The position numbers were made by a program, and so were the translations under genes. Below the pieces are notes generated by a model. That model had not been told where the DNA came from. It did not search any database and was given only the letters and a program-made list of their open reading frames with translations. DNA of 64,000 nucleotides from Chloroflexota bacterium (lineage in GTDB: Bacteria; Chloroflexota; UBA11872; VXOZ01): NCBI GenBank assembly GCA_964291655.2, contig OZ219801.1, forward strand, positions 736,001-800,000, written 5' to 3'. How positions within the stretch are numbered: the first letter of the stretch is position 1; each line of letters starts with the position of its first letter. Of the stretch, positions 863 through 54,248 are shown piece after piece.

Positions 863-2350
863 ATGTCGCTAGAATCTCGCCCCATAGACTCTGTTCGTGG
901 GATGCTGGACCTCGACTCCCAGCAGACCCACGTGCAAGCTCAACTGCGGCAGTCTCTGCTCGATGCCTTCCAACTCGCTAGCTATGTCCCCATTGAAGTG
1001 CCGCTGGTGGAGCAGGCTGATCTCTACTTGCGCAAGTCCGGCGCCGAGACAATTTCCAAGATGTACACCTTTGAAGACTTCGGCGGGCGTCGCTTGGCGT
1101 TGCGCCCGGAACTCACCGCCTCCATCGTTCGCTACTACCTGGGAAACGATCAAAACTCCACTTTCCCGCTGCGATATGCCTACTCTGGGCCGGTGTTCCG
1201 CTACGAAAAACCGCAACGCGGGCGTTTTCGCCAGTTCTCCATGGCGGGCGTAGAGTTACTTGGCAGTGACGGGCCGTCCGCCGATGCCGAAGTGATCGCG
1301 TTAGCGTGTTGGACGCTCAAACGACTTGGCATCACGCAATACCGGCTCGTTATCGGTCACGTTGGCATCCTCTTGGAATTACTTGGCAGCTTGGGACTCT
1401 CGACCCGCTTGCGGCACTTTCTCCTCGATAGCATGGAAGACGTGGGGAGGCCCGGGCGGGGCCTGGGCTACGTGCGCAAACGCTTAGAAGAGATCCACCC
1501 TAACCGGCGGGCCGCAGCAACGACACAAGAGTCCTTTACCGGCTCCGAGGAGCAGGCACAAGCCACGCTGCGCGTATCGTTGCAGGAGATGGGAATCGAG
1601 CTCGACGGCAGCCGACCGGCAGAGGCGATACTCGGTCGGATGTTTCGCAAACAACGCGCTTCCGATGAAGATGAGCGCCTGGAACGCGCGTTTGAGTTTA
1701 TCCAAGGCTTGCACAACCTTTCGGGGGCACCAGGGGAAGTGCTGGAACGCGCGCGAAAGTTTCTGGAGTCGTTTGGCTTAGGCGACCAGCCCCTTAGCCG
1801 CCTTACTGATGTGGTTGCGGCGCTCCATGCCTATGGCATCGAGGATTCTCACGTGCAAGTGCAACTCGCTCTCGGGCGCGGCCTCCATTACTACACCGAT
1901 GTGGTGTTCGAGCTGTACGACTCCACAGGCCAGAGCCAGTTGTGTGGCGGCGGACGCTACAACGAACTTGTGCAATCCCTTGGCGGTCGCAAGTCCGTTC
2001 CGGCGGTGGGATTCGCGTTTGGCCTGGAGCGCCTCCGGCTGGCTTTGGACGAGCAAGGCGCTGCGCCGCCGGCTCCGCCGCCAACGCAGGTGCTTGTGGC
2101 TGCAGCCAGCACAGGCGCCACACACGCCAGCATGCAAACAGCGCAGCGGCTCCGGGAACACGGCATCAGCGCGGAACACGACCTGCGGCAGCGCACCGAA
2201 CGTGCGCGCATTGGTTACGCAAATCGGAGGGGAATTCCCTTTATCCTCTTAGTAGAGGACCAAAAAGACTCCGCAATCCTACGTAATCTATCCGAAGCCA
2301 CCGAACAAGCGCTTTCATTAGGTGAAGTGGTGCAGGTGCTGAATGGCTGA
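863..2350 (+). CDS. HisS-like protein (histidyl-tRNA synthetase or HisZ regulatory subunit)
   Basis: LRPELTAS, YSGPVFRYEKPQRGRFRQF, RGLHYYT, GGGRY and a C-terminal anticodon-binding-like domain. Overlaps the hisG start. ATG 863 preferred over the ORF-track start at 572. Confidence 0.85.
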   Translation: MSLESRPIDSVRGMLDLDSQQTHVQAQLRQSLLDAFQLASYVPIEVPLVEQADLYLRKSGAETISKMYTFEDFGGRRLALRPELTASIVRYYLGNDQNSTFPLRYAYSGPVFRYEKPQRGRFRQFSMAGVELLGSDGPSADAEVIALACWTLKRLGITQYRLVIGHVGILLELLGSLGLSTRLRHFLLDSMEDVGRPGRGLGYVRKRLEEIHPNRRAAATTQESFTGSEEQAQATLRVSLQEMGIELDGSRPAEAILGRMFRKQRASDEDERLERAFEFIQGLHNLSGAPGEVLERARKFLESFGLGDQPLSRLTDVVAALHAYGIEDSHVQVQLALGRGLHYYTDVVFELYDSTGQSQLCGGGRYNELVQSLGGRKSVPAVGFAFGLERLRLALDEQGAAPPAPPPTQVLVAAASTGATHASMQTAQRLREHGISAEHDLRQRTERARIGYANRRGIPFILLVEDQKDSAILRNLSEATEQALSLGEVVQVLNG

Positions 2351-3359
2351 AGCGCTGCGTCTGCTCGTGCCAAGCAAGGGCCGCATTGGGGAGCAAACAC
2401 TGGATTTCTTCGCCAAGTGCGGCCTTGACATCGTGCGTCCGAATTCGCGCGCATATGAAGCGACGTTCCCGACAGTTCCCAACGTGGCGATCCTCTTTCA
2501 GCGCGCGTGGCAAATGGTTGAGCAAATACGCAACGGTGACGCCGACGCCGGCATTACCGGCTATGACATTCTTTCTGAAATGCGGCAAGAAGGCGACAAT
2601 CTCGTGGTCGTCGCGGAAGACCTGGGGTACTCCCAGGGGAGACTCGCCATTGCGGTACCGGAGGAATGGATAGACGTTCGTACCTTGACCGACCTTGCCG
2701 AAGTGGCGCTAGAGTTTCGCGAAAGAGGCCGGGTGCTGCGCATTGCCACGACCTTTCCTGCCCAGACTCGCCAGTTTCTCTTCCAGCAGGGCATCACATA
2801 CTTCCAGGTGGTGCAGGCCGAGGGCGGTCTGGAGGCGGCGCCGACTCTCGGCTATGCCGATATCATCGTTGACTTAGTTTCCACGGGCGCAACGCTCAAA
2901 GACAACCGGCTCAAGATGATCGAACATGGGGTCATTTTGGAAACGCAGGCATGTCTGGTCGGAAATCGAGAACGACTGCGCGCGAGCGCTGCCAAGCGGG
3001 AGGCGCTGCGGCAGATCCTGGAACTCATAGAAGCTTCGCAAAGCGCCGAACCCTACTCGACGCTTACCGCAAACATGCAAGGAGACTCTGCAGAGGCAAT
3101 CGCGGCCAAGCTGGCGGCATTTCCGGAAGTCGGCGGTCTGCTCGGCCCGACAATTGCTCGAGTATTTGCCAGAGATGGGCAGGATGATTCGTGGTTCGCG
3201 GTAACCGTCCAGGTAAAATCCAGGAACTTGCTTTCTGCTGTGGCAAGCTTGCGGCAAGCGGATTGTATGAGCGTCTCCGTTACCTCTCCGCACTACATCT
3301 TTGCTCGGGAGAGCTCCCTTTACCGTTGCCTTCTCCAGACATTGAAATTGGAAGAATGA
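2343..3359 (+). CDS. hisG: ATP phosphoribosyltransferase, long form
   Basis: PSKGR, DAGITGYD, EAAPTLGYADIIVDLVSTGATLKDN, C-terminal regulatory domain with GLLGPTI. Confidence 0.95.
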   Translation: MAEALRLLVPSKGRIGEQTLDFFAKCGLDIVRPNSRAYEATFPTVPNVAILFQRAWQMVEQIRNGDADAGITGYDILSEMRQEGDNLVVVAEDLGYSQGRLAIAVPEEWIDVRTLTDLAEVALEFRERGRVLRIATTFPAQTRQFLFQQGITYFQVVQAEGGLEAAPTLGYADIIVDLVSTGATLKDNRLKMIEHGVILETQACLVGNRERLRASAAKREALRQILELIEASQSAEPYSTLTANMQGDSAEAIAAKLAAFPEVGGLLGPTIARVFARDGQDDSWFAVTVQVKSRNLLSAVASLRQADCMSVSVTSPHYIFARESSLYRCLLQTLKLEE

Positions 3360-3503
3360 GCAGCAGCGCTATCGCTGCGGGAAACGTCCGTGAGCATAAG
3401 GCCGAATTGAACAAGAGCCGAGGCTGTGAAACAAGCAGTAATCAAGCGTCGCAGATTTGGGATATAGTGTACGGTATTGCTATAAAGTTGCGCGAAACGC
3501 AAT

Positions 3504-3533
3504 CCGTCATTCCCGCTTGCGCGGGAACCCATC
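3504..3533. repeat. REP-like hairpin (GTCATTCCCGC-N-GCGGGAACCCA type)
   Basis: ccgtcattcccgcttgcgcgggaacccatc. Related degenerate copies near 55864 and 55967. Confidence 0.65.
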
Positions 3534-3665
3534 GTGTCTCTTTGCTAGACACCAATCCCGCTGGAGCGATGGCGACAAACCAATCAACCGCTCTGGCCGT
3601 CGCAATCCGGCCGGCGCGGGACAGACCTAAAACCACGCACATGAAAGACAGGGTAGCTGCATCAA

Positions 3666-4559
3666 ATGTTTGACATTGTCGGCCGCAGGAAGTGGGCTTA
3701 CGTTGTATCAGCGATAATAATCATTCCGAGTATTCTCTCGCTCATCATTTTCCGCTTGCAACCAGGTATCGACTTTTCCGGCGGTACTATCTATGAACTA
3801 CGCTTCGACGCCACACCAACTACCGAGGAAATCAAGCGCGTCTACTTGAGCCTCAATCTTGGCGAGCCACTCGTGCAGGCGACAGGTGAGGGCACGGTCA
3901 TTATCCGTTCAAAGGAACTGGGGCTAGAGGATAAGCAAGCCGTGCGCGGCGCTCTGGAGGAGGTGAACGGCCAAGCTGAGGAGCTGCGCTTCGAAGCTGT
4001 GGGGCCCGTGATCGCCCGGGAACTCACCCAGAGAGCCATTCTCGCGGTGCTGGTAGCATCAGTGGGAATTCTTGTGTACATCACATGGGCGTTTCGCCAT
4101 GTACCCCAACCTTTCCGCTATGGCGTCTGCGCGATCTGCGCGCTTGTCCACGATGTATTGATCGTGTTGGGCGTATTCTCCGTGCTGGGTTTCCTGGTGA
4201 ATAAAGAGATCGACTCTATGTTTATTACGGCCATTCTCACCGCCATCGGCTATTCGGTGCACGATACGATCGTGGTCTTCGACCGTGTGCGTGAGAATCG
4301 CTCCAAGTATGCCTACGCGCCCCTTCCCACCGTCGTGAACTTCAGTGTCAATCAAACAATCGACCGCTCGTTGAACACGTCCATCACGTTGCTCATTACA
4401 CTCTTTGCGCTTTACCTCTTTGGGGGTCTGGCCATCAAGGACTTCGTCCTGGCGCTCCTGATCGGCACGGCAACAGGAACTTATTCCTCGATCTTCATTG
4501 CCGCAAGCCTGCTGGTTGAATGGGACGTGTACTCTCAACGACGAGTTGAGGCGACGTAG
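3666..4559 (+). CDS. secF: Protein translocase subunit SecF
   Basis: GIDFSGG, ALVHDV, IGYSVHDTIVVFDRVREN, RSLNTS, GTYSSIFIA. Confidence 0.97.
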   Translation: MFDIVGRRKWAYVVSAIIIIPSILSLIIFRLQPGIDFSGGTIYELRFDATPTTEEIKRVYLSLNLGEPLVQATGEGTVIIRSKELGLEDKQAVRGALEEVNGQAEELRFEAVGPVIARELTQRAILAVLVASVGILVYITWAFRHVPQPFRYGVCAICALVHDVLIVLGVFSVLGFLVNKEIDSMFITAILTAIGYSVHDTIVVFDRVRENRSKYAYAPLPTVVNFSVNQTIDRSLNTSITLLITLFALYLFGGLAIKDFVLALLIGTATGTYSSIFIAASLLVEWDVYSQRRVEAT

Positions 4560-9322: not shown

Positions 9323-9520
9323 TGGCGCTCTCCTCTATTCCATTGGGAGCCAACCTACGACTAGCCATTGCCACCTCACTGCGAGTAGTATACGCGAGAC
9401 CGACAACAAGAGTGTCCAAACCCAAACTCACCGCTTCTTAAATTCCTTTGAGTAGACTAGGGCCTGGAATGTAGAGCTATGAGTGTCAACCGTGCAAGGC
9501 TATTCCCGGCATGTCATTCT

Positions 9521-9761
9521 TGTAAATGTCAGGTAATTCGTTGACAGATTTGGCACAAGAAACATGGGAGCAGAACTCTGTGCTCACCTACACACATGTC
9601 ATTCCGAACGGAGCGTAGCGGAGTGAGGAATCTAGAGTGCTGAGGCCGTGAAAGTGTGTTGAGCAGGGACCCTAGATTCCTCGCTACGCTCGGAATGACA
9701 AGGCCTTGTAGCGCTTTCTACGGGAAAGCAAATTCTGTCAACGAATTACTCAACACTTACA
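9521..9761. mobile_element. TGT…ACA MITE (241 bp) carrying a REP pair, inserted in a REP of the same family
   Basis: TIR TGTAAATGTCAGGTAATTCGTTGACAGA vs reverse complement TGTAAGTGTTGAGTAATTCGTTGACAGA. 5-bp TSD ATTCT (9516-9520, 9762-9766). Removal restores TGTCATTCTGAGGAGCGCAGCGACGAAGAATCT. Confidence 0.85.
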
Positions 9762-10045
9762 ATTCTGAGGAGCGCAGCGACGAAGAATCTCGAGTGCGGG
9801 GATGCTTAGATTCCACGAACCCAGTTTGACGCTGCGTTTGGAATGACTAGAGTTGCGGCCCAGCGGGGATATCAATTCCTAATCTACTCATTCCGACCGC
9901 AGAGACCATTTCTTAGTTCTATGGATTCTGTTACACTTGCACCACTTGTGGTACAAGACGGGACTGATAGATCGGTTTTACGCCCGATAGTTAAGGCAAG
10001 ACACCAGCCTCAATCTAAGCGCACAATCTGCAAAGGAACGCTCGC

Positions 10046-11662
10046 GTGGCGCAATCGCATGACGTTGCAGATGTCCTAATCATCGGAGCCGGCGCGTCCG
10101 GCGCGGCGGCAGCGTGGTCGTTGGCGTCGGGTGGACTTGACGTGGTCTGCCTGGAGCAAGGCGACTGGGTCGATCCTGCGGACTACCCTCATAGCAGTGT
10201 CGATTGGGAATTGCACCGGCAGACTGACTTCGCCAAAGATCCCAACGCGCGGCAGCGTCCGGAGGATTACCCCCTCAACAACGATGACACCCCCATCACC
10301 CCGCTCATGTTCAATGCCGTCGGCGGCAGCACCATCCATTGGAGCGGTCACTTTCCGCGCTTCCGGCCCTCCGATTTCCGCGTAAAGACGCTGGACGGCG
10401 TTGCCGACGACTGGCCTGTGACGTATGGGGACCTCGCGCCGTATTACGAGCAGAACGATGCCAACATCGGCGTTTCGGGTCTGAATGGCGACCCCGCCAA
10501 TCCGGAGCGCACGCCCCGCCAAACGCCGCCACTCGGTCTTGATGCCGCTACCAAAGCTTATGTTCGCGGCTTGGAAAAGCTGGGCTGGCACTGGTGGCCA
10601 ACGGACAACGCCCTCATTACTGCGCCCTTTGGCGAAGGGCGGCAGGAGTGCAATTACTGCGGGCCGTGCGACATGGGGTGTCCGCGCGGCGCCATGTCCA
10701 GCGCTCACGTGACGTACTGGCCGATGGCTCTGGCGAAGGGAGTGCGCCTCATCACCCGCGCACGGGTGCGGGAGATCACCGTGGACCGGCGTGGCCGTGC
10801 CAGCGGCGCCGTGTACTACACGGCAGATGGCGGCATAGCTCAACAACGCGCGCGGGTCGTCATCGTCGCGTGCAACGGGGTGGGCACGCCGCGGCTGCTG
10901 CTCAACTCAGTGTCCAGTCTCTTCCCACACGGCCTCGCCAACTCAAGCGGTCTCGTCGGCACGCACCTCATGTTCCATCCCGTGACATTTGTGACTGGCG
11001 TCTTTGCCGAACCGATGAACGGTTACGTGGGCCCACTCGGCATGGTTATTCACTGTCAGGAATTCTATGAGACTGATACAAGCAGAGGCTATGTGCGTGG
11101 ATTTCAACTCCAGATGGGTCGCGAGAGCGGCCCTCTCTCCACTGCTCTTGGCAACTTTCCCGGTGAAAAGGTCCCGTGGGGCTCGGAACACCATCGCGTA
11201 CAACGCGAGCGCAGCGCTCACACGCTTACGATCGGCGTCATGATCGAAGACCTGCCCGAGGCGCACAATCGTGTTGAAATTGATGCCACCCTGACGGACA
11301 GCAATGGCATTCCGGCACCGAGGATTGTGTACAAAGTGAGTGAGAATAGCAGAAGGAGTCTGGATTACGCCATTGCGCGGGCGCGGGACCTTGTGGAAGC
11401 CGCGGGCGCCACACAGGTATTGAACCAACCGCTTACGCGGGAAACGGGGTGGCACTTGATGGGCACCGCGCGCATGGGCAATGATCCCGCCAATTCGGTG
11501 GTAGACCGATACGGACGCGCCCACGACGTGCCCAATCTCTTCATCGTGGACGGGAGTCTCTTTGTCACGTCCGCTGCGGTCAACCCGACCAGTACTATCC
11601 AGGCCCTAGCGCTCCACGTCTCCGACTGGTTGAAGCATAACTTCCGGGAAGTGGCATCATGA
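10046..11662 (+). CDS. GMC family oxidoreductase (flavoprotein), paralog 1
   Basis: GAGASG FAD motif, AVGGSTIHW, CNYCGPC…CP, HLMGTARMG, NPTSTIQAL. Confidence 0.93.
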   Translation: MAQSHDVADVLIIGAGASGAAAAWSLASGGLDVVCLEQGDWVDPADYPHSSVDWELHRQTDFAKDPNARQRPEDYPLNNDDTPITPLMFNAVGGSTIHWSGHFPRFRPSDFRVKTLDGVADDWPVTYGDLAPYYEQNDANIGVSGLNGDPANPERTPRQTPPLGLDAATKAYVRGLEKLGWHWWPTDNALITAPFGEGRQECNYCGPCDMGCPRGAMSSAHVTYWPMALAKGVRLITRARVREITVDRRGRASGAVYYTADGGIAQQRARVVIVACNGVGTPRLLLNSVSSLFPHGLANSSGLVGTHLMFHPVTFVTGVFAEPMNGYVGPLGMVIHCQEFYETDTSRGYVRGFQLQMGRESGPLSTALGNFPGEKVPWGSEHHRVQRERSAHTLTIGVMIEDLPEAHNRVEIDATLTDSNGIPAPRIVYKVSENSRRSLDYAIARARDLVEAAGATQVLNQPLTRETGWHLMGTARMGNDPANSVVDRYGRAHDVPNLFIVDGSLFVTSAAVNPTSTIQALALHVSDWLKHNFREVAS

Positions 11663-11910
11663 GTAGTCCGGATGAATACGGTGTCACCGGAGTTCATGCA
11701 AGATGACTCGCTGACTGTGTTGGCGCAAGTGTGTGTGGCGCGGATCGACAGAGCATCCCCTGAGTTTACCTGCCTTAGTGGGTGTTATTTAGTGGGTTTA
11801 GACACGCCGATTGGGCCCTTGTTTTGGTTTCTACCGGAAACGAGGTCATGTGAAGAAGGTGGTCTTGACCAATTCAATGCTAATCGCAGCGCCTGCTGAG
11901 GAGCGCACCC

Positions 11911-13524
11911 TTGGCACCCGTACGTGACGTGGCAGATGTCTTGATCATCGGCACCGGCGCCTCCGGGGCGGCGGCAGCCTGGTCGCTGGCGGCTGACGGT
12001 CTTGACGTGGTCTATTTGGAGCAGGGCGACTGGATCGACCCCACCGACTACCCTCATCACAGCCCGGACTGGGAATTGCATCGGCAGACCGATTTCGCCA
12101 AAGACCCTAACGTGCGGCAACGGCCGGAAGACTATCCCCTCAATAACGAAGACACGCCCATCACGCCCCTCATGTTCAATGCCGTCGGCGGCAGCACAGT
12201 CCATTGGAGCGGGCACTTTCCGCGCTTCCGACCGTCAGATTTCCGGGCAAAGTCCCTGGATGGAGTTGCCGACGACTGGCCCATGACGTATTGGGACCTG
12301 GAGCCGTACTACGAGCAAAACGATGCCAACATTGGAGTATCAGGAGTGAACGGCGATCCCAGCGGTCCTCCACGTTCGCCCCGGCAAACACCTCCACTTG
12401 GCCTCGACGCTGCCGCGAGAGCGTACATTCGCGGCCTGGATAAGCTGGGCTGGCATTGGTGGCCGACCGACAATGCCCTCATCACCGCCCCCTTTGGGGA
12501 AGGGCGGCAGGAGTGCAACTACTGTGGGCCCTGCGACATGGGGTGTCCGCGCGGCGCCATGTCAAGCGCCCACGTGACCTACTGGCCTGCCGCACTCGCG
12601 AATGGGGCGCGTCTCATCACGCGTGCCCGCGTGCGGGAGATCACCGTGGACCGGCGCGGCCGCGCCTGCGGCGCCGTCTACTATACACAAGACGGCGGCA
12701 TCGCCCAGCAGAGCGCGCGGGTCGTCATAGTCGCCTGCAACGGTATCGGCACACCCCGCCTACTGCTCAACTCAGAATCCAGTCTCTTTCCGCACGGCCT
12801 CGCCAATTCGAATGGCCTGGTTGGGACGCACCTTATGCTTCATCCAATTGCCTTTGCAAGCGGGGTCTTTCCCGATCGGGTCGACGGGCATGCGGGCCCC
12901 GTCGGTCTGCTCTTCCAATGTCAGGAATTCTACGAGACCGATCTGAGCCGAGGTTTCGTGCGCGGTCTCAAGATCCAGCTCTGCCGGGATAGCGGTCCAC
13001 TTTCCACCGCAATTGGCAACTTTTCAGGTGAAGCGGTGCCCTGGGGCGCCGCACACCATCGCATGCAGCGCGAGCGCAGCGCCCATATGCTGGCCATCTC
13101 CATAATGGTGGAAGACTTGCCTGAGCCACACAATCGGATTACGCTCGATCCCACATTGGCGGACGACAACGGCATTCCGGCGCCCAAGATCTCTTACACC
13201 GTCAGCGAAAACAGCCGCAAGGCACTTGATTTCGGCATCGCGCGGGCACAAGACCTACTGGACGCCGCAGGCGCCACAGAAATAAAGTACCAAGCACTTT
13301 CCCGCGATACAGGTTGGCATCTGATGGGCACAGCGCGTATGGGCGACAATCCTGACATGTCGGTCGTAGACCGCTACGGCCGGGCACACGACGTCCCAAA
13401 CCTCTTCATCATTGATGGCAGCCTCTTTGTCACCTCGGCCGCGGCGAACCCCACAAGCACCATTCAGGCTCTTGCCCTTTACGTCTCCGATTGGCTGAAG
13501 CATAATTTCCGTGAGGTAGCATGA
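11911..13524 (+). CDS. GMC family oxidoreductase, paralog 2
   Basis: Same motifs as paralog 1 and collinear with it. Confidence 0.93.
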   Translation: MAPVRDVADVLIIGTGASGAAAAWSLAADGLDVVYLEQGDWIDPTDYPHHSPDWELHRQTDFAKDPNVRQRPEDYPLNNEDTPITPLMFNAVGGSTVHWSGHFPRFRPSDFRAKSLDGVADDWPMTYWDLEPYYEQNDANIGVSGVNGDPSGPPRSPRQTPPLGLDAAARAYIRGLDKLGWHWWPTDNALITAPFGEGRQECNYCGPCDMGCPRGAMSSAHVTYWPAALANGARLITRARVREITVDRRGRACGAVYYTQDGGIAQQSARVVIVACNGIGTPRLLLNSESSLFPHGLANSNGLVGTHLMLHPIAFASGVFPDRVDGHAGPVGLLFQCQEFYETDLSRGFVRGLKIQLCRDSGPLSTAIGNFSGEAVPWGAAHHRMQRERSAHMLAISIMVEDLPEPHNRITLDPTLADDNGIPAPKISYTVSENSRKALDFGIARAQDLLDAAGATEIKYQALSRDTGWHLMGTARMGDNPDMSVVDRYGRAHDVPNLFIIDGSLFVTSAAANPTSTIQALALYVSDWLKHNFREVA

Positions 13525-44979: not shown

Positions 44980-46887
44980 TTATTCCGAACTGGTTCCCGC
45001 CGCAGCGGCAGCGGCTTGCTCAGCGGGAGAGGCGTCCGCAGTCGCCGGACTCACCGCAACGCCATCTGAATCCTCCGCTGGATCTCCATCGACCGAGGGC
45101 GTAGGTGATTCTGCGGGCTTCTGTGGCCCTCTGACCCGATCGACCAGACGGCGCAGTTGTTGGTCGTCCGGAGCCACTGCAACACCCGCTTCCCCTACCG
45201 CCAAGGCTTCAGCCTCATTGTCAGTCTCTAAGTGCGTCCATACGAGCATTCGGTAGAGAAACGCCTGCGCATGCGAATCGTCTGCCCGCTTTGCAATTTC
45301 CAGCCCCTGCGAAAACTGTTCAAGAGCGTCCACGAACTTGCCCCGCTCGTAGCAAATGCGGCCGAGCACGGCGACAGGCGCGTAGTTATCGGGGTTATCC
45401 AGCACAAGCTGTTCCGCCATCATGGCTGCGCGCGTGTGCTCGCCTGCCACGGCGAGTTGCTGAGCAAAGGCGAGCGCAGCGTCCAGGTTGTCCGGCTCTT
45501 GTTGGGTCGCCTGCTCCAAAGCGGCCAAGGACTCTTGGTGCTCGCCCTTAAGCATGTGTTGCAGCGCAGTTGCCATTCCCGTGGTTGCCGATGAAGTTGC
45601 CACCGCAGGTTTTGCAGGTTCCTTTTCCTTTTCCTGAGCCTCCACATTTGCGGGCGGCTCAGGCTGGGGTCGTTTCCGCCCACCGCTTTCACGAACTGGT
45701 GTGTCTGACGCACCCCGCGAAGTTGCTTTTGCCGTGCCCGTGTCAGAGCGTGGCTGGCGGGCCGGCGGCGACGCCTGTCGCGGTCGCGTCCCCCGTCCCC
45801 GCTGGCGTGCGGCGTCGTCGCCGCGAGTAGATTGGCCGTTGCTGCTCTTGGCGGCGCGCTCCAGCTCTTGCTTCCGAGATTGAACATCCTTATAGCGGCT
45901 GTCCAAATTGCCGCAGCGGGTATAGGCTTCGAGTGCCTTATCCGGTGCGCCCAGTTTTTCGTACACTTGGCCGAGGTCGTAGTAGATCTCCGCATCGTCA
46001 TCCTGCTGACGCACCACGTCTTCGAGTTCATTCGCAGCATCAGAATTCCGCCCCAAGGCGGAAAGGGTAAGCGCCAGCCGATGCCGGTAGCGCGCCTGAC
46101 GCGGCATCAATCGCACTGCCTGCGAGAAGTGGTTCAGCGCTCGCGACAATTCGCTGCGATCGAAGGAATTGCGACCGAGGCTATACAGCCGGGCAGCCAG
46201 CATATTGCGATCAACGTGCGTATCCAGGGTTTCACCGAGCGGCAATTCCGGCTGATCGAATTGCGCCTGTTCCGTGCGGCGCTTCTCATTCTCGATCACC
46301 AGCGAGAGCAGCAGCCCCAGGTCGATGTATCCGTCTGCGACAAGCTTCAAGCCGGGATCGCTACCCACGCCAAAGTTGCCTACCATTACTTGGACGCCGC
46401 GGTCACGGAGCCGGGAAAACACCGGAATGAAGTCCCCGTCTCCGGTCAGCGCGAACGCCTTGTCATAGAAACCTACAAAGTCGAGCATGTCCAGCGACAT
46501 CTCGATGTCCAGATTGCCTTTGTAGCCCCCTCCCGGCAGCTCTTTAGACCGCTTATGGACCACACGAAAGCCGTGGGTTACCAGATAGTCAAGCTGCTGG
46601 CGAAAGCCCTCTACCCGCAAGTCCGTGCCCGTATAGTAATAAGCTCCCAGGAGCGTATCGTCTCCTCGGAGCTGGTCTCGAATTAGGTGCCACGGCACGC
46701 GCATGATGCCGATGTCTCGGGCTTGGCGTTCGATGTTGGCCGCATCGATGAAAATCATCAGGCGATGCGGCTTTGTAGACTGAAGGGGTGTACCGATTGC
46801 GGATTTTAGCGATTCTAGCGGGTGCCCGCAGGCAATACAGATGAGGCTACTGCCTCTGTTCAAACTCCCACACGTAGGACAATTCAT
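44980..46887 (-). CDS. Zn-ribbon + NYN (LabA/DUF88) domain + TPR repeat protein
   Basis: CPTC…CIAC, FIDAANI, KGNLDIEMSLD, TGDGDF, two TPR clusters separated by a low-complexity linker. Confidence 0.85.
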   Translation of the reverse strand: MNCPTCGSLNRGSSLICIACGHPLESLKSAIGTPLQSTKPHRLMIFIDAANIERQARDIGIMRVPWHLIRDQLRGDDTLLGAYYYTGTDLRVEGFRQQLDYLVTHGFRVVHKRSKELPGGGYKGNLDIEMSLDMLDFVGFYDKAFALTGDGDFIPVFSRLRDRGVQVMVGNFGVGSDPGLKLVADGYIDLGLLLSLVIENEKRRTEQAQFDQPELPLGETLDTHVDRNMLAARLYSLGRNSFDRSELSRALNHFSQAVRLMPRQARYRHRLALTLSALGRNSDAANELEDVVRQQDDDAEIYYDLGQVYEKLGAPDKALEAYTRCGNLDSRYKDVQSRKQELERAAKSSNGQSTRGDDAARQRGRGTRPRQASPPARQPRSDTGTAKATSRGASDTPVRESGGRKRPQPEPPANVEAQEKEKEPAKPAVATSSATTGMATALQHMLKGEHQESLAALEQATQQEPDNLDAALAFAQQLAVAGEHTRAAMMAEQLVLDNPDNYAPVAVLGRICYERGKFVDALEQFSQGLEIAKRADDSHAQAFLYRMLVWTHLETDNEAEALAVGEAGVAVAPDDQQLRRLVDRVRGPQKPAESPTPSVDGDPAEDSDGVAVSPATADASPAEQAAAAAAGTSSE

Positions 46888-47517
46888 TACAATACGTCGT
46901 GCCTCACTCTTCCAAATTCCCTTGAATAATAGGGGTCACGTGTCCGGCGTGCCCTTAGCAGGTATGATACCACAGTTCAATCCATGTAGTGCCGCGGCGG
47001 GCGCAGCGGCTATGCCCTTCGATCAATGCAACGGTAAACACGTCGTACTATTCGGTGGAACGATTGACTTGCCTAAAACCCCGATTGCTTTCCGTTGACC
47101 GACAGGACTCGAGGCGGTAGCATTGAGGCGCGCTTTACCATCTGGCGATCGGTAGGGACGCTAAGGCCTATGAAAACGCGTCAATTGGCTTGCTAGCCAC
47201 ATTGAATTCTCGAGTGAGATTAGGCTAGTCCCGATTCAAGGCGCCTGGCCGACTGTACGAGCGAGTTCAAGTCTCTCTTAATTCCGCTTACTTGAAGTTG
47301 GTGGTTGCCATGTCGAATAGTCCGTCTAAGGCGTTCTCTTCTCATTTGGAAACACATCTATTACACATCAAGTCAGGAATCTCCAGACGATGCTTGCGCA
47401 ATAACTGTTGACTTCAAGGCCTTCAAAGAGGATCCGGAGGAACTCCGGCTTGGGCCAACGCTTCTAACTTGAGGAAACACAAATCTGAGAATCATAAACT
47501 GAAGACCAGAGGAAATC

Positions 47518-48687
47518 TTGGACACTAGAAACCAGAGCTGGACTAGTCTGCTGAAACAAGAAGGGCCCGACTTCCTAGCATGGTTAAGGACCCAGCGAAC
47601 CCTATCAAGAAAGTTCGACGTATTGTCGAAAGCTCTATCGACACTCTTGCAGAACTGTATTCGCACACCAGAGCAAGCCGCGGATGTTTGGAAGGCCGTG
47701 CCAGCGGTGATTGAACGCTGTAACGAAAGGGAAACCTATGAAATGCCCGGAGCCGCGTGCGCTTACGCGTGGCTTCACTTGCTTGACCGATACGTCCGAA
47801 CGTGGTTTGCCTTGGAACTGCTCGTAGAGAAACATTGTCTTCCGATGGGGAAGAAAGGAGTACGTGCATTGGATGTAGGCACCGGGCCTGGTCCATCCGC
47901 ATTCGCTATTCACGACTTCTATGCCTCAATGGTCGAGTTTTCTCAGACGCTTTCTCAGACGCGGGATGATTCCAAGTGGCGACAACCATCGCATGTAACC
48001 TGTGTCGAATTTGATGGGAGTACCAACCACTTTAGACATCTCCTCGCTGAGGTGATTTTCGAGCAGGCCCAACGCGAATCCGAAGGGGTCCTTGCGATGT
48101 GTGGCAACTTGGCGGACTTCGGAGAGGTAGAGCCTACGCGAGAGCGTATGGAGCATTTTCAGGCTCTAAGTAACGCCGAGGAAACGTATTTTGATGAAGT
48201 AAGAGGCGAATGGACTTCGGACCTGTTGTACTTGCCGTACGAAGCCAACTACATCGCTCAATCTCAGCACCGATACCGCCTAATCACGTTCAGCAACTTC
48301 CTTACTACTGTGAAGACCGCGAAGTGCTTTAAACCAAACTTAGTTGATATATTTTGCGATGCAGCGCCAGGAACCGTGTTGCTAGTACTCGGAGGGACAG
48401 GAGGCCCCTATCCCGAGGTATACCAATACACAGACCAGTTAGCCGAGCCAGCGGGTTTTGAACTGGGAATTCATGACGAAACTGTATCTTGTGCAGGTAG
48501 CGAGTTTGCATGCCGAGTTTATGAAGAGGGACGTCAGTTCTACGAGTTCCTCCAAGGACTTTCGCCAAACAAGGATGCCGCGACAAAGTGTGTTCGTGAC
48601 GAATTCGAAGGGCGAAAGGCAGTTCATTTCTCTTGCAGTGGGGTACGAGTATATCGGAAACATTGGTACGCAAAGGGTAAGAATTGA
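47518..48687 (+). CDS. Orphan hypothetical protein with a class I SAM-binding motif; atypical composition
   Basis: ALDVGTGPG, LITFSNFL…APGTVLLVLGG. Start uncertain (TTG). Confidence 0.65.
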   Translation: MDTRNQSWTSLLKQEGPDFLAWLRTQRTLSRKFDVLSKALSTLLQNCIRTPEQAADVWKAVPAVIERCNERETYEMPGAACAYAWLHLLDRYVRTWFALELLVEKHCLPMGKKGVRALDVGTGPGPSAFAIHDFYASMVEFSQTLSQTRDDSKWRQPSHVTCVEFDGSTNHFRHLLAEVIFEQAQRESEGVLAMCGNLADFGEVEPTRERMEHFQALSNAEETYFDEVRGEWTSDLLYLPYEANYIAQSQHRYRLITFSNFLTTVKTAKCFKPNLVDIFCDAAPGTVLLVLGGTGGPYPEVYQYTDQLAEPAGFELGIHDETVSCAGSEFACRVYEEGRQFYEFLQGLSPNKDAATKCVRDEFEGRKAVHFSCSGVRVYRKHWYAKGKN

Positions 48688-48899
48688 GCAAATCGCGTCA
48701 ACAGGACTTGAGGGCGACCATTCTTTCGCGACCTCTCAAGGCTTCCTGCACAACAGCCCAGCACACTTGGTGACTTTAGTCCAAACTTACATGCTAGTCA
48801 TTTAGTGTAGCAATACCATCCACTAGAGAGTTCGAATTCCCGTCCCACTAGGCCCCTGGAGTCTCGCAACCTACGAGATTTCCAACTAAAGGAGTTTCG

Positions 48900-49769
48900 A
48901 TGATGTCCGCGCAGAAACTCTACAAAGTTGGCGTCACCGGCTATCCCCTTTCACATACGCTCTCCCCTGCCTTTCAACAGCCGGCGTTCGACCACTACGG
49001 TATACCGGCTACGTACCGCACGTACCCTGTGACAGCGGCAGAATTGCCGTCATTGACCGCCGCGATGCGCAGCGCGGAGTGGCTGGGGCTCAACGTGACC
49101 ATTCCGCATAAAGAAGCCGTGGCTGCCCTGGTTGACCGTTGCACTCCTACTGCTGAAAACATAGGCGCCGTCAATACGCTCTTCAAAGACAGCGGGAGCC
49201 TCATCGGCGACAACACCGATGCTTACGGCTTCTTGACTGCGTTGCGGACGGACGGTGCTACCGACCCCGCAGGCGCAAAGGTGGTCGTGTTGGGCGCAGG
49301 CGGAGCGGGACGCGCCGTGCTCGTGGCGCTTGCGCAGGGCGGCGCTGCGCAAATCACACTTGCCAACCGGCACCGCGAGCGTGCCGAAGGTCTCTTGAGC
49401 GCCCTTGAAGAATCGCTGAGCGCCCAGGACTGCAATGTGGTGGACTGGGCCAGCACGGCGCTGCACCAAGCTGCGGCAGCGGCAGACATCATCGTAAACT
49501 CCACCGCCGTGGGCATGTCCAAGGGGCCCGCGCCGGAGCTGTCACCTCTGCCCTCGCACGTGTTCCAAGGAAACCAGTTCGTATTCGACCTCGTCTACAC
49601 TCCCAGCCACACGCCCCTGCTACGCCATGCCCAAGAGGGAGGGGCACGCACCCTGGACGGCCTCCCAATGCTCGTCTATCAAGGCGCCGCGGCCTTCGAA
49701 CGCTGGACAGCAAAGCCCGCGCCCCTTAAACTGATGAAGGCCAAGGCACTGGCCGCGCTTAGTGCGTGA
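48900..49769 (+). CDS. aroE: Shikimate dehydrogenase
   Basis: GYPLSHTLSP, GLNVTIPHK, GAVNT, GDNTD, GAGGAG, DLVY. Confidence 0.96.
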   Translation: MMSAQKLYKVGVTGYPLSHTLSPAFQQPAFDHYGIPATYRTYPVTAAELPSLTAAMRSAEWLGLNVTIPHKEAVAALVDRCTPTAENIGAVNTLFKDSGSLIGDNTDAYGFLTALRTDGATDPAGAKVVVLGAGGAGRAVLVALAQGGAAQITLANRHRERAEGLLSALEESLSAQDCNVVDWASTALHQAAAAADIIVNSTAVGMSKGPAPELSPLPSHVFQGNQFVFDLVYTPSHTPLLRHAQEGGARTLDGLPMLVYQGAAAFERWTAKPAPLKLMKAKALAALSA

Positions 49770-49854
49770 TGCTCGGTATTTGACTGCCCATGAGCACTGG
49801 AAGAAAGAACTGAGTTTGCCTGCTTTGGGTAACTAAAACAGATAAGTCAATCTC

Positions 49855-50487
49855 ATGCCAATTGACCATGGATCAGTGGACCCGGTTGCAAAGCTCGTCG
49901 ACTCAATTGACGGTTCATTTGGTACGATACTTGCTGACCCTCCCTGGAGATTCAATAACCGCACAGGCAGAGTAGCTCCAGAATATCGCCGCCTCCCTCG
50001 CTATTCGTCAATGTCCATCCATGAGATTTTGACTCTTCCCGTACGTGAGTTTGCACTTGAAAACTGCCATCTATATCTGTGGGTTCCAAATGCTCTAATA
50101 CAACAGGGCTTGTCTGTCATGGAACAATGGGGTTTCCAATACAAAACAAACATCGTCTGGTATAAGACTCGTAAAGATGGCGGGCCAGACGGACGCGGAG
50201 TTGGCTTCTATTTTAGAAATGTCACTGAATTGGTTCTCTTTGGAGTTCGTGGGAACATACGTACACTGGAGCCAGGCAGGAGACAGGTCAACATCGTAAT
50301 GAGTCAAAAACGTGAACACTCCCGAAAGCCAGACGAACTATACGACATAATTGAGCAGTGCAGTCCCGGCCCTTACCTAGAATTGTTCGCACGACACGCT
50401 CGGCCAGGATGGGTTCAATGGGGAAACGAGGTTAGCCACAGGTTAGCGACACTAGACAAGAGTGCCAACTCATCGAATAGCACCTAA
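49855..50487 (+). CDS. MT-A70 family N6-adenine methyltransferase
   Basis: ILADPPW, HLYLW, WGF.YKT..VW.K, REHSRKP, YLELFAR…GW..WGNE. Confidence 0.93.
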   Translation: MPIDHGSVDPVAKLVDSIDGSFGTILADPPWRFNNRTGRVAPEYRRLPRYSSMSIHEILTLPVREFALENCHLYLWVPNALIQQGLSVMEQWGFQYKTNIVWYKTRKDGGPDGRGVGFYFRNVTELVLFGVRGNIRTLEPGRRQVNIVMSQKREHSRKPDELYDIIEQCSPGPYLELFARHARPGWVQWGNEVSHRLATLDKSANSSNST

Positions 50488-50529
50488 GCTGTCAATTATG
50501 CTGATGCGAATACCTTAGACTTTCGTCGT

Positions 50530-52839
50530 ATGCGCTCCCGGCAGGTCATCATGGAAAGAGTTAACAAGCGAGGAGAGGTCACTGGTTTCGTCTCCGGAAC
50601 CGACCTTGAACGAGAGCGGAGGCAACGCCGCAAGGCTGCCCACGAGAAGACCGTACCATTGGGTCAAGTTTCGAATTATGCTGATGATGGTTGGGAGATT
50701 GTCCGGCGCAACAAGAGAACCGCTCGAGTCCAAAAGGCAAAGCCCGAAGACCAAAGACTTGAAGACGATGTTTGGACTTTGCTTGCAGACATGGGATTTT
50801 GCGAGATCAGCCAAGGACGTCATTTCAAAATTCCTGTTAGCGGTTCGACTTTAGGAGTTCCTCCCAAGCAAATCGATGTGCTTGCAGTTGATAGTGACAC
50901 TGCAATGGTGGTGGAGTGTAAGGCCTCGGATACAATTAGGTCGCGCTCTCTCCAAAAGGACCTAAATGAAACTCGAGGGTTGCAGGATGGGATTCGTTCT
51001 ACCATTCACCGCCATTTCGAAGCACATCTAAGAGTGTGTTTTGTTTACGTTACAAGGAACATTCGTTGGAGTAGCCAAGATTTAGGACGAGCCAAAGACC
51101 ATCAAATTGCCGTGATTCGAGATAGGCAAATCGACTACTACCGAAGGCTGACAGACATTATTCAGACAGCTGCAAGGCACCAGTTTCAGGCAGACCTTCT
51201 TGAGGGATCTTCCGTTCGAGGTTTGAGCGCTACAGTACCAGCCCTTCGTGGCAAGTTTGGAAAGAATGTCTTCTATCAGTTTGCGATTGAGCCCGATAAA
51301 TTGCTGAAACTTGCTTATGTTAGCCACCGATCTAAGGTTGACAGCAAGGTTATAGGTACGTACCAACGGCTTCTAAGGAAAAAGCGGCTCAAGGATATCT
51401 CCAACTACATCAATGAAACAGGTGGTATTTTTCCCACTAACATCGTTATCAACATTAGAGATTCTAGACGACTGAGATTCGACGCTGCAGGGCCATCTAG
51501 CGACGCGCCTACTGTACTCGGTACGCTATACCTGCCAAACACCTACAAGTGTGCATGGGTCATTGACGGACAACATCGGCTGTACGGATTTTCTCAGAGT
51601 GAATGGAGTAGCCGAGGTAGAATACCTGTACTTGCCTTCGAGAACTTGGACCCATTGGATGAGATGAAGATGTTTGTAGACATCAATAGCAAGCAAGTAA
51701 GAGTTCCTCGTAGCTTGCTGGTCGAACTAGGTCCGGAGCTACCTGCGTCAAATGTTGGTCCAGAGCAGGAACTCAAAAACTTGCACGCGCAACTTGCAAT
51801 AGATATTTCAGAGAGTGACAATTCGCCTTTGTGGGATCGTGTCCGGACAGAGTGGGACACAGACACTGAGAACAAGCCAATTACGCTCCCGCAACTGGAG
51901 AGCGCGATAAAAGGCAGTAGGTTGATCGGCTCAATCCGAAGCGGCGCGCTTTACCCTGAATTCCTCTATCGGAGCGACACGGAAACTACTCGTGAAAGAG
52001 CCAAACTGACCATAGAGGGATTCCTTTCTTTGTTTGCAGAGGGTGCAGAAGAACACTGGAATCTAAAGCCATCTGCTGGAGGATTCCTGTGTACCAACCT
52101 TGGGATTGCTGCATTGTTGAGGTTGTTCTATGCAGCACTGGAAGACAAGAAGAAACAGGAAGATCATATCGAATTTGAAAAGCTCTCTCCCGATGCGTTG
52201 GTTGGGACCGTAACAGACTTGGTCACTCCTGTTATTGGCTGGTTCAGTAACCCAGAAGCGAATACCGATAGGTTTAGAGGACACTATGGAAGTGGCGCTG
52301 CGCCCGCATACGCATTTGCACTGATGGAAATTGTCAATAGTAGATACGCTGATTTCAATCCCCCTGGTCTGCAAGATTATGTTCAGGAACACAGTACCGA
52401 GACAATAGGGCGTGCAAGGGAATTGATAACGTTTATCGAGGATAGTATCAGAGACGTGACGTTTGAGGTTCTAAAGTCTAAGTATGGGGATGACGACAAC
52501 AGTTGGTGGCGCGAAGGTGTTCCCCAGAGTGTCCGAGGAACTGCCGCGCAGAGAGCAGAGATGAGTGAAGAAGTGGGAGAAAGACATCAATTCCTAGACC
52601 TTTTGGATTACAAGAAGATAGCGGAACAATCGAAGAACTGGCGCGATTTTGAATCAAAGTGGACCATTGATGGGGATGCCCGCACTAAGAACGACAAGCT
52701 CGCTTGGATGGATCGACTAAATAGAATACGCAATCGCTTGTTCCATTCAGGTAGGCGACATATCACAAACGAAGAGGTCGTGTTTCTTGAAAACGTCTGG
52801 GTTCATGTGGAAGAGCAGTTGGAAGCTCTGCAAAAATAG
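50530..52839 (+). CDS. DGQHR (DndB-like) protein with an N-terminal PD-(D/E)xK-like nuclease and a C-terminal Swt1-like HEPN domain
   Basis: QIDVLAVDSDTAMVVECK (~50869-50922), YQRL…IFPTNI…IDGQHRLYG (51565-51579), IEDSIR…WW..GVP…RNRLFH (52729-52746). Confidence 0.85.
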   Translation: MRSRQVIMERVNKRGEVTGFVSGTDLERERRQRRKAAHEKTVPLGQVSNYADDGWEIVRRNKRTARVQKAKPEDQRLEDDVWTLLADMGFCEISQGRHFKIPVSGSTLGVPPKQIDVLAVDSDTAMVVECKASDTIRSRSLQKDLNETRGLQDGIRSTIHRHFEAHLRVCFVYVTRNIRWSSQDLGRAKDHQIAVIRDRQIDYYRRLTDIIQTAARHQFQADLLEGSSVRGLSATVPALRGKFGKNVFYQFAIEPDKLLKLAYVSHRSKVDSKVIGTYQRLLRKKRLKDISNYINETGGIFPTNIVINIRDSRRLRFDAAGPSSDAPTVLGTLYLPNTYKCAWVIDGQHRLYGFSQSEWSSRGRIPVLAFENLDPLDEMKMFVDINSKQVRVPRSLLVELGPELPASNVGPEQELKNLHAQLAIDISESDNSPLWDRVRTEWDTDTENKPITLPQLESAIKGSRLIGSIRSGALYPEFLYRSDTETTRERAKLTIEGFLSLFAEGAEEHWNLKPSAGGFLCTNLGIAALLRLFYAALEDKKKQEDHIEFEKLSPDALVGTVTDLVTPVIGWFSNPEANTDRFRGHYGSGAAPAYAFALMEIVNSRYADFNPPGLQDYVQEHSTETIGRARELITFIEDSIRDVTFEVLKSKYGDDDNSWWREGVPQSVRGTAAQRAEMSEEVGERHQFLDLLDYKKIAEQSKNWRDFESKWTIDGDARTKNDKLAWMDRLNRIRNRLFHSGRRHITNEEVVFLENVWVHVEEQLEALQK

Positions 52840-53072
52840 CTTGCTCCCTTGTACTTTATTTCAGCATCTATTGCGAGAGTAAGAAAACAGAGATAAGGCA
52901 ATACTCGGTTGACTTTGCAAAGTCAGATTTACAGCAGTTATCTCCTGGAGTCACTTGGCGGCTATGCGCGTACTTCCCTGTGTTTTCGTGGCCAACGTGC
53001 CTAGGGGTAAGAGGCTAGTTCCTTTGGGCTTGCCAGACGACTCATACGCGCACTAAAGAGGTATAGGCTACC

Positions 53073-54248
53073 GTGCTACGCGTACTGAAGATCCTCACCG
53101 CCGGTGAATCGCATGGGCAGGCGCTCCTGACCATCGTGGAAGGCATGCCGTCCGGACTACCCATCTCGTCGGAGGAGATTGGCCGCCACATGACCCGCCG
53201 CCAGCAAGGGCACGGGCGCGGCCGCCGCCAGCAAATTGAAAAAGACGCCGCGGAGATTCTTTCCGGCGTGCGCCACGGCAAGAGTATCGGCAGTCCCATT
53301 GCCATGTTGGTCAACAACAAGGACTGGGACAATTGGCAGGAGATCATGGCGGTTGAGCCGGTGGAGACGCCGGTCAAGAAGGTCACACACCTGCGGCCCG
53401 GTCATGCCGATCTCGTCGGCGTATTCAAGTATGGCTTCGATGACATTCGTCCCATTCTCGAACGGTCGAGCGCCCGCGAAACTGCAGCCCGACTCGCCGC
53501 CTCCGGCGTGTGTCGCGCCCTCCTAAGTCATTTTGGCATCAAGATCGCGAGTTACGTCTCGGTGCTTGGACCGATTGAAATCGACGGCGCCTATGAGGTG
53601 ACGCAGCATCCCGATTCCGTAGACTGGGACGCGTTGGAAGAAGACCCGCTGCGCTGCCCGGATCCCGAGGCAAGCCGCCAGATGGTGACGCTCATTGACC
53701 AAATGAAGGAGGCAGGCGACAGCCTGGGCGGCGTCTACAACGTCGTTGCCTGGGGTCTGCCGGTCGGATTGGGCAGCCACGTCTTTTGGGACCGCCGTCT
53801 GGACTCGCGACTGGCGGCGGCAATTCTGTCTATCAACGCCACCAAAGGGGTTGAATTCGGTGCAGCGTTTGAAAACGCGCGCAAGCAGGGCTCCGAGGTG
53901 CAAGACCAAATTCGCTTCGAAAAGGGCCGGGGCTTTTCCCGCTTGAGCAATCGCGCGGGCGGTCTGGAAGCAGGCATCAGCAACGGGGAGCCGCTCCTCG
54001 TGCGCGGGGCGCTGAAACCAATTTCCACTATCAGGAGCCCGTTGCCTTCCGTGGACTTAACAACTCTGGAGCCGGCTCAGGCCCATTACGAACGCGCTGA
54101 CACCACCGCCGTGCCTGCCGCCGGGGTCATTGGCGAGGCGATGGTGGCAATTGTCTTGGCCGATGCGTTTCTGGAGAAATTCGGCGGCGACAGCCTGGCG
54201 GAGATCGAACACAACTATCACGGATACATGGAAGGGCTGCCACAATAG
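53073..54248 (+). CDS. aroC: Chorismate synthase
   Basis: TAGESHG, RPGHAD, ERSSARETA, GDSLGG, N.AGG.E.GISNG, KPIST. Confidence 0.97.
   Translation: MLRVLKILTAGESHGQALLTIVEGMPSGLPISSEEIGRHMTRRQQGHGRGRRQQIEKDAAEILSGVRHGKSIGSPIAMLVNNKDWDNWQEIMAVEPVETPVKKVTHLRPGHADLVGVFKYGFDDIRPILERSSARETAARLAASGVCRALLSHFGIKIASYVSVLGPIEIDGAYEVTQHPDSVDWDALEEDPLRCPDPEASRQMVTLIDQMKEAGDSLGGVYNVVAWGLPVGLGSHVFWDRRLDSRLAAAILSINATKGVEFGAAFENARKQGSEVQDQIRFEKGRGFSRLSNRAGGLEAGISNGEPLLVRGALKPISTIRSPLPSVDLTTLEPAQAHYERADTTAVPAAGVIGEAMVAIVLADAFLEKFGGDSLAEIEHNYHGYMEGLPQ

Follow-up and report, generated by a model that had tools for sequence, protein, structure and literature searches.

Within a 64,000-nucleotide stretch of a Chloroflexota bacterium genome (assembly GCA_964291655.2, contig OZ219801.1, positions 736,001 to 800,000 of the forward strand), which we call the window and whose numbering we use throughout, two co-oriented open reading frames (ORFs) stand 42 bp apart between aroE and aroC. 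The first (49855-50487) encodes a 210-amino-acid (aa) MT-A70 DNA methyltransferase and the second (50530-52839) a 769-aa protein, here called the effector, that joins a PD-(D/E)xK nuclease domain, a DGQHR domain, and a C-terminal HEPN-like domain in one polypeptide. We find that effectors of this family are linked almost universally to DNA-modification genes and that the modification partner can be exchanged. The system is thus defined by the effector family together with an interchangeable modification module, and not by the MT-A70 enzyme. We judge it moderately likely that the two genes were acquired horizontally as a restriction-modification-like defence cassette whose restriction subunit is the large protein, a nucleoside triphosphate (NTP)-gated nuclease.

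The effector family is large. A word-based search scored 8,000 candidates and found 1,349 relatives; the 120 matches listed are mostly full-length and 35-78% identical to the window's protein. A profile search of 1.84 billion representatives gave 1,050 matches at E<=1e-30, nearly all of the best 150 being ~760 aa long, and a one-genome-per-species scan gave at least 548 confirmed loci among at least 598 pattern matches, the closest of these confirmed relatives coming from Chloroflexota and Dehalococcoidia assemblies. Our neighbourhood survey covers the best 80 of these confirmed loci, using a greedy ORF caller, three genes on each side, blastp clusters, and Pfam names from ten representatives. 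These 80 loci are spread over many bacterial phyla and several archaeal orders, and family members are named by NCBI only as 'DGQHR domain-containing protein'.

A DNA-modification module lies within the locus in 78 of the 80 (corrected count). The partner is a Dam-type D12 methylase in 34 loci, a second, different D12-like methylase in two, an MT-A70 methylase directly upstream of the effector in seven (all Chloroflexota or Dehalococcoidia), and a radical-SAM protein (~540 aa) and/or a GHKL ATPase (~515 aa) in 35. Methylase partners in this survey are always co-oriented with the effector gene and directly adjacent to it. The first pass left five loci partnerless, and those five were rechecked by tblastn. 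Two additions to the 32 Dam-type loci found by ORF clustering came from this recheck, one a Dam gene that the ORF caller had missed (L080) and the other a Dam fragment at a contig end (L058); a radical-SAM gene 4.9 kb downstream of the effector at L049 was likewise added to the 34 loci of that type, and at L071 the contig holds the effector gene alone. The recurrent MT-A70 linkage by which the original prediction could be judged is therefore present, both in the seven survey loci and in three more genomes of the same class that carry the MT-A70 and effector pair.

The radical-SAM protein shows a weak likeness to B12-binding radical-SAM methylases and its companion is a GHKL/HSP90-like ATPase. 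The module often occurs with a short DGQHR-only protein of 320-490 aa, and all three proteins have generic names in RefSeq. Besides the 35 survey loci, which include L015-L050, loci of this type are found on plasmids at L099 (pNL1, 9332-13472) and L100 (9479-13702). The radical-SAM/GHKL module may be a DNA-modification system of unknown chemistry. On the same two alphaproteobacterial plasmids, genes annotated as 'ATP-binding protein' and 'PIN-like domain-containing protein' stand side by side next to the radical-SAM-type locus (L099, 13823-16277; L100, 3314-6636) and are possibly a further linked defence pair.

In a quick maximum-likelihood tree of 77 effectors, the partner labels were strongly clustered, requiring at least 11 changes compared with a mean of 35.5 when the labels were shuffled. 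Partner type follows the effector tree, yet it has switched several times. The MT-A70-linked effectors, the window's included, form one clade of eight rows with a Shimodaira-Hasegawa-like approximate likelihood ratio test (SH-aLRT) value of 100, and the sister of this clade is a Dam-linked protein. The flanking genes differ in most of the eight MT-A70 loci, and therefore the mobile unit is the two genes. At L084, in one of the three additional same-class genomes, an effector gene (1414-3681, minus strand) lies head-to-head with an MT-A70 gene (3764-4405, plus strand); this effector shares only 33% identity with that of the window, its nearest kin being Dam-linked archaeal effectors, and its MT-A70 is 65% identical to the window's. 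This pairing shows that the MT-A70 subfamily was recruited to the effector family at least twice.

Four of the 80 loci (L017, L053, L059, L060) have an effector split into two ORFs beside a partner that is whole. This is weak evidence of the decay that would be expected if loss of the nuclease is tolerated and loss of the mark is not; assembly errors could look the same.

The effector gene (50530-52839, plus strand) was modelled with AlphaFold2 from 28 relatives, giving a mean predicted local distance difference test score (pLDDT) of 85.2 and a predicted template-modelling score (pTM) of 0.69. A second in-frame ATG at 50551 would give a 762-aa protein, which is the length in the protein database (P0001) and fits the N termini of relatives; the start is ambiguous between 50530 and 50551, and neither has an obvious ribosome-binding site. 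In a Pfam scan at E<=0.1 the protein matched only DndB, HEPN_Swt1 (0.033), Card1_endonuc (0.047), and Hjc (0.091), and its PADLOC matches cover partial domains only (DpdB, DndB, PDC-M34B, and weakly CARF_PDDEXK). Sequence searches of solved structures, with the protein and also with the family profile, returned chance-level matches only, and Foldseek returned no match at E<=0.001 for the whole effector model or for the HEPN model. The three domains are supported by profiles, conserved motifs, and the AlphaFold model; their E-values and the conservation seen in hundreds of relatives exceed by a wide margin what chance would give.

The PD-(D/E)xK nuclease domain occupies residues 73-205 (50746-51144, plus strand), with an N-terminal extension from about residue 15. 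Its motif reads Q114-I-D116-V ... V-E129-C-K131, with the D116 codon at 50875-50877 and E129-C-K131 at 50914-50922. In VIA-align comparisons the domain aligned with AF1548 (1y88) at Z 12.2 and a root-mean-square deviation of 2.2 over 114 residues, with the nuclease halves of VC1899, Can2, and Card1 at Z 9.1-9.5, and with NucS, BstEII, and FokI at Z 7.2-8.5. A CARF sensor is absent: in the CARF-nuclease effectors (Can2, Card1, Cdn1), the match to model residues 10-230 is confined to the C-terminal nuclease halves (for example, VC1899 147-383 and Card1 149-373). We scored motif conservation in 77 full-length proteins, that is, the window's and those of 76 loci, excluding the four split genes. 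All 77 have D116 and E129. At residue 131 (window 50920-50922), 48 proteins have lysine and 29 have threonine, the latter including 27 that are radical-SAM-linked; by the first labelling, K131 is present in all 40 rows with a methylase partner, and ExT stands in place of ExK in 27 of 32 radical-SAM-linked effectors. In this ExT clade the nuclease may have its lysine at another position or may function in another way.

The central DGQHR domain, a ParB/Srx fold plus a DndB/DpdB-type helical part, spans residues 238-534 (51241-52131, plus strand). It matches NCBIfam TIGR03187 at 1.9e-46, scoring 159.1 bits against a cut-off of 58.85, and a Pfam DndB match is found in 28 of 28 aligned relatives. 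All five residues of the D346-GQH-R350 motif (51565-51579) are kept in 77 of 77 effectors. VIA-align relates the domain to PadC (Z 7.8), the N-terminal part of pNOB8 ParB (ParB-N, Z 6.7), KorB (Z 6.6), and sulfiredoxin (Z 6.4). The protein also matches DpdB (PADLOC 3.8e-27, residues 235-545; NCBIfam 9.6e-26), but the equivalog cut-offs are not reached for DpdB (90.5 bits versus 300), DndB (27.4 versus 328), or DGQHR_dnd_1 (80.9 versus 450).

The C-terminal HEPN-like domain, of Swt1/Abi2 type, covers residues 620-769 (52387-52836, plus strand) and carries the Rx4H motif R734-NRLF-H739 at 52729-52746. Both R734 and H739 are conserved in 75 of the 77 effectors and throughout a C-terminal alignment (20 of 20). 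On the window protein the Pfam HEPN_Swt1 match is weak (0.033, 14.9 bits, below the gathering score of 27.5); it reaches E<=0.01 in nine of 28 relatives, the best at 3.7e-6, and PADLOC PDC-M34B matches residues 622-748 at 5e-9. A model of this domain by itself has a pLDDT of 92.8. Its closest VIA-align match is AbiF (Z 9.1 over 133 residues); other HEPN proteins follow at Z 7.8 (AF0298), 7.1 (Swt1), 6.9 (Csm6), and 6.5 (sacsin), and the whole range with HEPN toxins is 6.2-7.8, but unrelated helical bundles score in among these matches. Because the fold alone is not decisive, the HEPN assignment rests on the profile hits and the conserved Rx4H. One of the eight MT-A70-linked effectors, that of L008, has lost Rx4H, so an RNase output would not be indispensable.

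The insert itself, of low GC content and lying between aroE and aroC (49778-53056), takes the place of the short intergenic spacer of relatives. GC content is 0.45-0.52 over 49750-52999, versus 0.63-0.66 in aroE and 0.60-0.62 from aroC onward. By Pfam, the flanking genes are aroE, aroC, aroK, and aroB, the immediate neighbours being aroE on the left (shikimate dehydrogenase, 48900-49769, plus strand; Shikimate_dh_N 3.4e-23) and aroC on the right (chorismate synthase, 53073-54248, plus strand; Chorismate_synt 1.1e-115). The 9.8 kb surrounding the gene pair served as the query against each of the 16 other genomes in the genus. Both aroE and aroC were matched in 15 of the 16, with 90-449 bp between the two matches, and the 16th genome (69% complete) is without an aroE or aroC match because its contig ends; window positions 49778-53056 were matched in none of the 16, and none has a full-length homologue of the large protein. 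The nearest relative, G008, has flanks that are 96-98% identical and an aroE-aroC gap of ~187 bp. Its spacer is dissimilar to the sequence left around the insert, and therefore the spacer was replaced, not split. At the insert ends we looked for a target-site duplication, a terminal inverted repeat, an integrase, and a tRNA and saw none, and scans for promoters and terminators gave no signal above the shuffled expectation. From these comparisons we conclude that the insert is foreign, recently acquired, and strain-specific. The original prediction, made from the letters of the window, had proposed two co-oriented, AT-richer genes between aroE and aroC, a DPPW-bearing MT-A70 enzyme in the first, and the three modules with their motifs in the second; the ORFs, the drop in GC content, and the Pfam flanks agree with it on the first point, as do the Pfam match and the motif of gene 1 on the second and the profiles, motif conservation, AlphaFold model, and VIA-align results on the third.

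Gene 1 (49855-50487, plus strand), the predicted self-marking methyltransferase, covers the whole Pfam MT-A70 profile (PF05063, 1.1e-32), matches PADLOC MTase_II at 1.3e-90, and has DPPW as its residues 28-31 (49936-49947). The genome has no other MT-A70 gene. Compared with the methylases that precede the effector in L002-L008, its identity is 65-77%. By tblastn, 195 plasmid records matched gene 1, 17 of them at 60-80% identity, and we examined the neighbours in eight of the top plasmid records. A gene annotated as a BglII/BstYI-family type II endonuclease adjoins a 62-70%-identical MT-A70 in five of the eight (Comamonas, Roseomonas, Roseovarius, Rhizobium, Xanthomonas), and an AAA ATPase gene does so in three, all actinobacterial. 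The BglII Pfam model has no match in the window's genome, with the endonuclease detected in two of two plasmids as a control. The statement in the original prediction that this MT-A70 subfamily usually has a BglII/BstYI-type neighbour, with none present here, thus agrees with the plasmid relatives and with the search of this genome. In the Arthrobacter, Mycobacteroides, and Kocuria plasmids (L097, L103, L105), the MT-A70 is 64-67% identical and stands with an AAA-family ATPase of ~550-610 aa and no endonuclease; a 437-aa hypothetical gene directly follows the ATPase in L097, and a different hypothetical gene flanks it in L105. The AAA ATPase of these plasmids may be a further alternative restriction partner.

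To judge from its family and its DPPW motif, the methyltransferase most likely places its mark at N6 of adenine (m6A). The BglII and BstYI sites, AGATCT and RGATCY, both contain GATC, and a GATC core might conceivably be shared by the Dam and MT-A70 partners; N4-methylcytosine, however, is the product of the characterised BglII and BamHI methylases and possibly of that of BstYI (PMC2890505). Site counts in the genome, as observed/expected, were 0.86 for GATC, 0.80 for AGATCT, and 0.82 for GGATCC, with 0.59 for CTAG and 0.32 for CAGCTG. That GATC, AGATCT, and GGATCC do not stand out as avoided among palindromes is uninformative, because this is what a recent insertion would give. A complex prediction for methylase and effector (979 residues, own alignments) scored 0.00, which speaks neither for nor against binding.

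By analogy with better-known enzymes, we infer a division of labour between the two proteins. The MT-A70 enzyme would methylate a short site in the host's own DNA, and the 769-aa protein, standing where a BglII/BstYI-type endonuclease stands beside related methylases, would be the restriction subunit. The DGQHR ParB-fold domain is predicted to bind DNA and NTP and to act as a switch or sensor of modification state, as DUF262 does in SspE, GmrSD, and BrxU, for which NTP binding by the ParB-fold/DUF262 domain and gating of the nuclease are reported in the accessible parts of PMC12065111 and PMC12707154. The PD-(D/E)xK domain would then cut DNA without the mark. The HEPN domain, through its Rx4H motif, could supply a second, RNA-directed output, a growth-arrest back-up for when DNA restriction fails, or could be a dimerisation scaffold; a second line of defence of this sort has been put forward for HEPN domains joined to restriction components (PMC3710099, in its available text). 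What makes us favour this classical polarity is that the partner methylases are type II-like enzymes of an ordinary kind (PADLOC MTase_II at 1e-90 and 4e-90), with close relatives that serve classical endonucleases; the four loci with split effectors also lean this way.

Several points weigh against this reading. DGQHR proteins of known function act on the modification side, DndB as a regulator and DpdB as an ATPase helper. The effector has no recognisable sequence-reading or methyl-reading domain, and L070 is without a partner in its locus, with D12 methylase genes elsewhere in its genome. Neither nuclease output is strictly universal, because L008 lacks Rx4H and 29 of 77 effectors have ExT, and the HEPN fold is recovered at Z 7-9 amid unrelated helical bundles, with no Foldseek match at E<=0.001. 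The assignment of m6A is not secure, because the BglII and BamHI methylases make N4-methylcytosine (PMC2890505, as far as its accessible text goes). Finally, the nearest characterised analogues act in the opposite sense: SspE requires the host's mark, and GmrSD and BrxU attack modified DNA.

The opposite polarity is one that we consider unlikely, but it is the alternative that fares best. Here the effector would be a modification-sensing enzyme of the SspE or DndI kind, inert without the methylase, in which the host's methyl mark loads or activates the ParB-fold NTPase and invader DNA is then nicked or degraded. Its architecture of ParB-fold NTPase, helical middle domain, and nuclease parallels that of SspE and GmrSD as presented in the available sections of PMC12065111 and PMC12707154, and for one effector family with three chemically different partner modules, sensing a licensing signal would be simpler than reading three unmodified sites. 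The type II-like character of the methylase partners and the service of their close relatives to classical endonucleases argue the other way, and the nuclease domains are unlike the DUF1524 of SspE, with no DUF262 or DUF1524 match in Pfam at E<=0.1. A further reading, to which we give the same low probability, would make the effector family a general reader-executioner that can be plugged into a Dam m6A mark, an MT-A70 mark, or a novel DNA modification produced by the radical-SAM enzyme together with the GHKL ATPase and the short DGQHR helper; an NTP-driven ParB-fold clamp would scan for the mark, the DNase would act against the invader, and the HEPN RNase would arrest the cell.

Less probable again, and in our view distinctly so, is that the pair is a selfish addiction module that persists through post-segregational killing and gives little phage protection. 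The minimal 3.3-kb cassette, lying without a recombinase inside a housekeeping operon, would suit such a module, and plasmid relatives adjoin toxin-antitoxin genes. However, the wide chromosomal spread in bacteria and archaea fits a defence benefit, and addiction overlaps with the restriction-modification reading instead of excluding it, since classical restriction-modification systems do both.

We find it very improbable that the large protein, instead of restricting DNA, assists or regulates modification in the manner of DndB (the dnd repressor) or DpdB (the ATPase helper of DpdA), with nuclease-like domains used for DNA handling. It is true that the best named matches of the effector are DpdB (PADLOC 3.8e-27; NCBIfam 9.6e-26) and DGQHR_dnd_1, and that a second, short DGQHR protein sits inside the modification module of radical-SAM loci, so DGQHR proteins do serve modification. 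But these scores lie far under the DpdB and DndB equivalog cut-offs (90.5 versus 300; 27.4 versus 328), small methylases of the type II-like kind do without a helper, both nuclease domains have catalytic residues that are conserved in 75-77 of 77 relatives, and the long DGQHR protein is retained in loci that have the short one. Least probable of all, and close to negligible, is a type IV-like enzyme against foreign modified DNA whose adjoining methylase is unrelated in function or only regulatory: the ParB-fold nucleases that have been studied best, GmrSD and BrxU, do depend on modification (PMC12707154, in its accessible text), but the 78-of-80 linkage to a modification module and the co-evolution of effector and partner would be unexpected for type IV enzymes, which typically stand alone.

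If the restriction-modification reading of the cassette is true, the family would amount to a class of restriction enzymes that still lacks a name, widespread among archaea and many bacterial phyla, and it would place a ParB-type nucleotide switch, a DNA nuclease, and an RNA nuclease in one protein, linking restriction to abortive infection. With its interchangeable partners, the family would lend itself to studying how one restriction component recognises several self-marks; members linked to Dam or MT-A70 are small systems of two genes. Roughly two in five surveyed loci have the uncharacterised radical-SAM/GHKL partner, whose product may be a new DNA modification; should the reader-executioner idea be true, it would imply a new restriction enzyme class and also a new DNA modification of enzymatic origin.

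Across aroE from the insert, a second island of low GC content (47135-48908) contains an ORF of 389 aa (47518-48687, plus strand). Of the 16 same-genus genomes, 15 lack it and one, G014, has it at 77% identity. The 389-aa product has no Pfam, NCBIfam, or PADLOC family; in the ESM Atlas it falls near unnamed and SAM-dependent methyltransferase-like clusters, which we take as a lead only. This ORF was considered as a third component of the system and is treated as separate, as tblastn found a counterpart in none of the 80 related loci. Upstream of the second island, the minus strand encodes a 635-aa protein (44980-46887) with an N-terminal zinc ribbon, an NYN ribonuclease domain (1.5e-19), and many TPR repeats; this gene lies outside the inserts, because it is conserved in the genus.

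What was known already, in general terms, is the ParB-HEPN fusion and its link to modification, both found in catalogues of 2013 (PMC3710099, PMC3632139, as far as their accessible text shows). Table 1 of Anantharaman et al. 2013 lists 'ParB (Saro_3948)', marked 'mostly active', among Swt1-like HEPN fusions (PMC3710099). Saro_3948 probably belongs to the effector family, because the only full-length relative in the Novosphingobium aromaticivorans plasmids is on pNL1. That entry differs from the present description in being a table entry only, the accessible text of PMC3710099 describing no N-terminal nuclease, partner modules, or system. Makarova et al. 2013 note that COG1479/DGQHR ParB-like domains occur in fusions with HNH, PD-(D/E)xK, and HEPN domains and are linked to modification systems (PMC3632139, available text). 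The three-domain protein, its partner sets, and experiments on them are not described in the accessible parts of PMC10853773, 10.1101/2025.10.10.680097, PMC4619093, PMC12707154, and PMC12065111, and our literature search, whose scope stopped short of the supplementary gene lists of PMC3710099, PMC3632139, and PMC10853773, found no experimental or system-level description. PADLOC 2.0 likewise has no system-level model for the effector. The proposal of an undescribed MT-A70-effector system accordingly holds in so far as the pair is recurrent and without a system model, and gives way in so far as MT-A70 is one of at least three partners and the fusion had been catalogued in 2013 (PMC3710099, PMC3632139, both in their accessible text).

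Among known systems, DndB and DpdB share a related central domain with the effector (DpdB profile 3.8e-27, residues 235-545), but the effector has ~400 extra residues carrying two nuclease-type domains; in line with the earlier statement that dnd and dpd genes are missing, DndC (TIGR03183) and DpdA (NF041059) have no match in this 97.55%-complete genome. SspE, DndI, GmrSD, and BrxU resemble the effector in having a ParB-fold nucleotide-binding domain with DGQxR, a helical domain, and a nuclease, and in belonging to modification-related defence (PMC12065111, PMC12707154, PMC4619093, accessible sections). They differ in using DUF262 (PF03235) and a DUF1524 His-Me nuclease, whereas here the domains are DGQHR (TIGR03187/PF14072), PD-(D/E)xK, and HEPN; moreover, the partner here is a simple methylase and not a phosphorothioation complex, and the effector is not a stand-alone type IV enzyme. 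As in PrrC/EcoprrI type I restriction, a HEPN RNase is physically coupled to DNA restriction (PMC3710099, in the text available), but here the HEPN domain is in the same polypeptide as the DNA nuclease and there are no helicase or type I subunits. The cassette shares with classical type II restriction-modification a methyltransferase with an intact DPPW, co-oriented and 42 bp upstream, and a PD-(D/E)xK core in the neighbouring protein. There is a parallel, too, with the plasmid-borne BglII/BstYI-type II pairs, which have a 62-70%-identical MT-A70 and are likewise tight two-gene cassettes moving between replicons, except that here the endonuclease is replaced by the 769-aa nuclease-DGQHR-HEPN protein.

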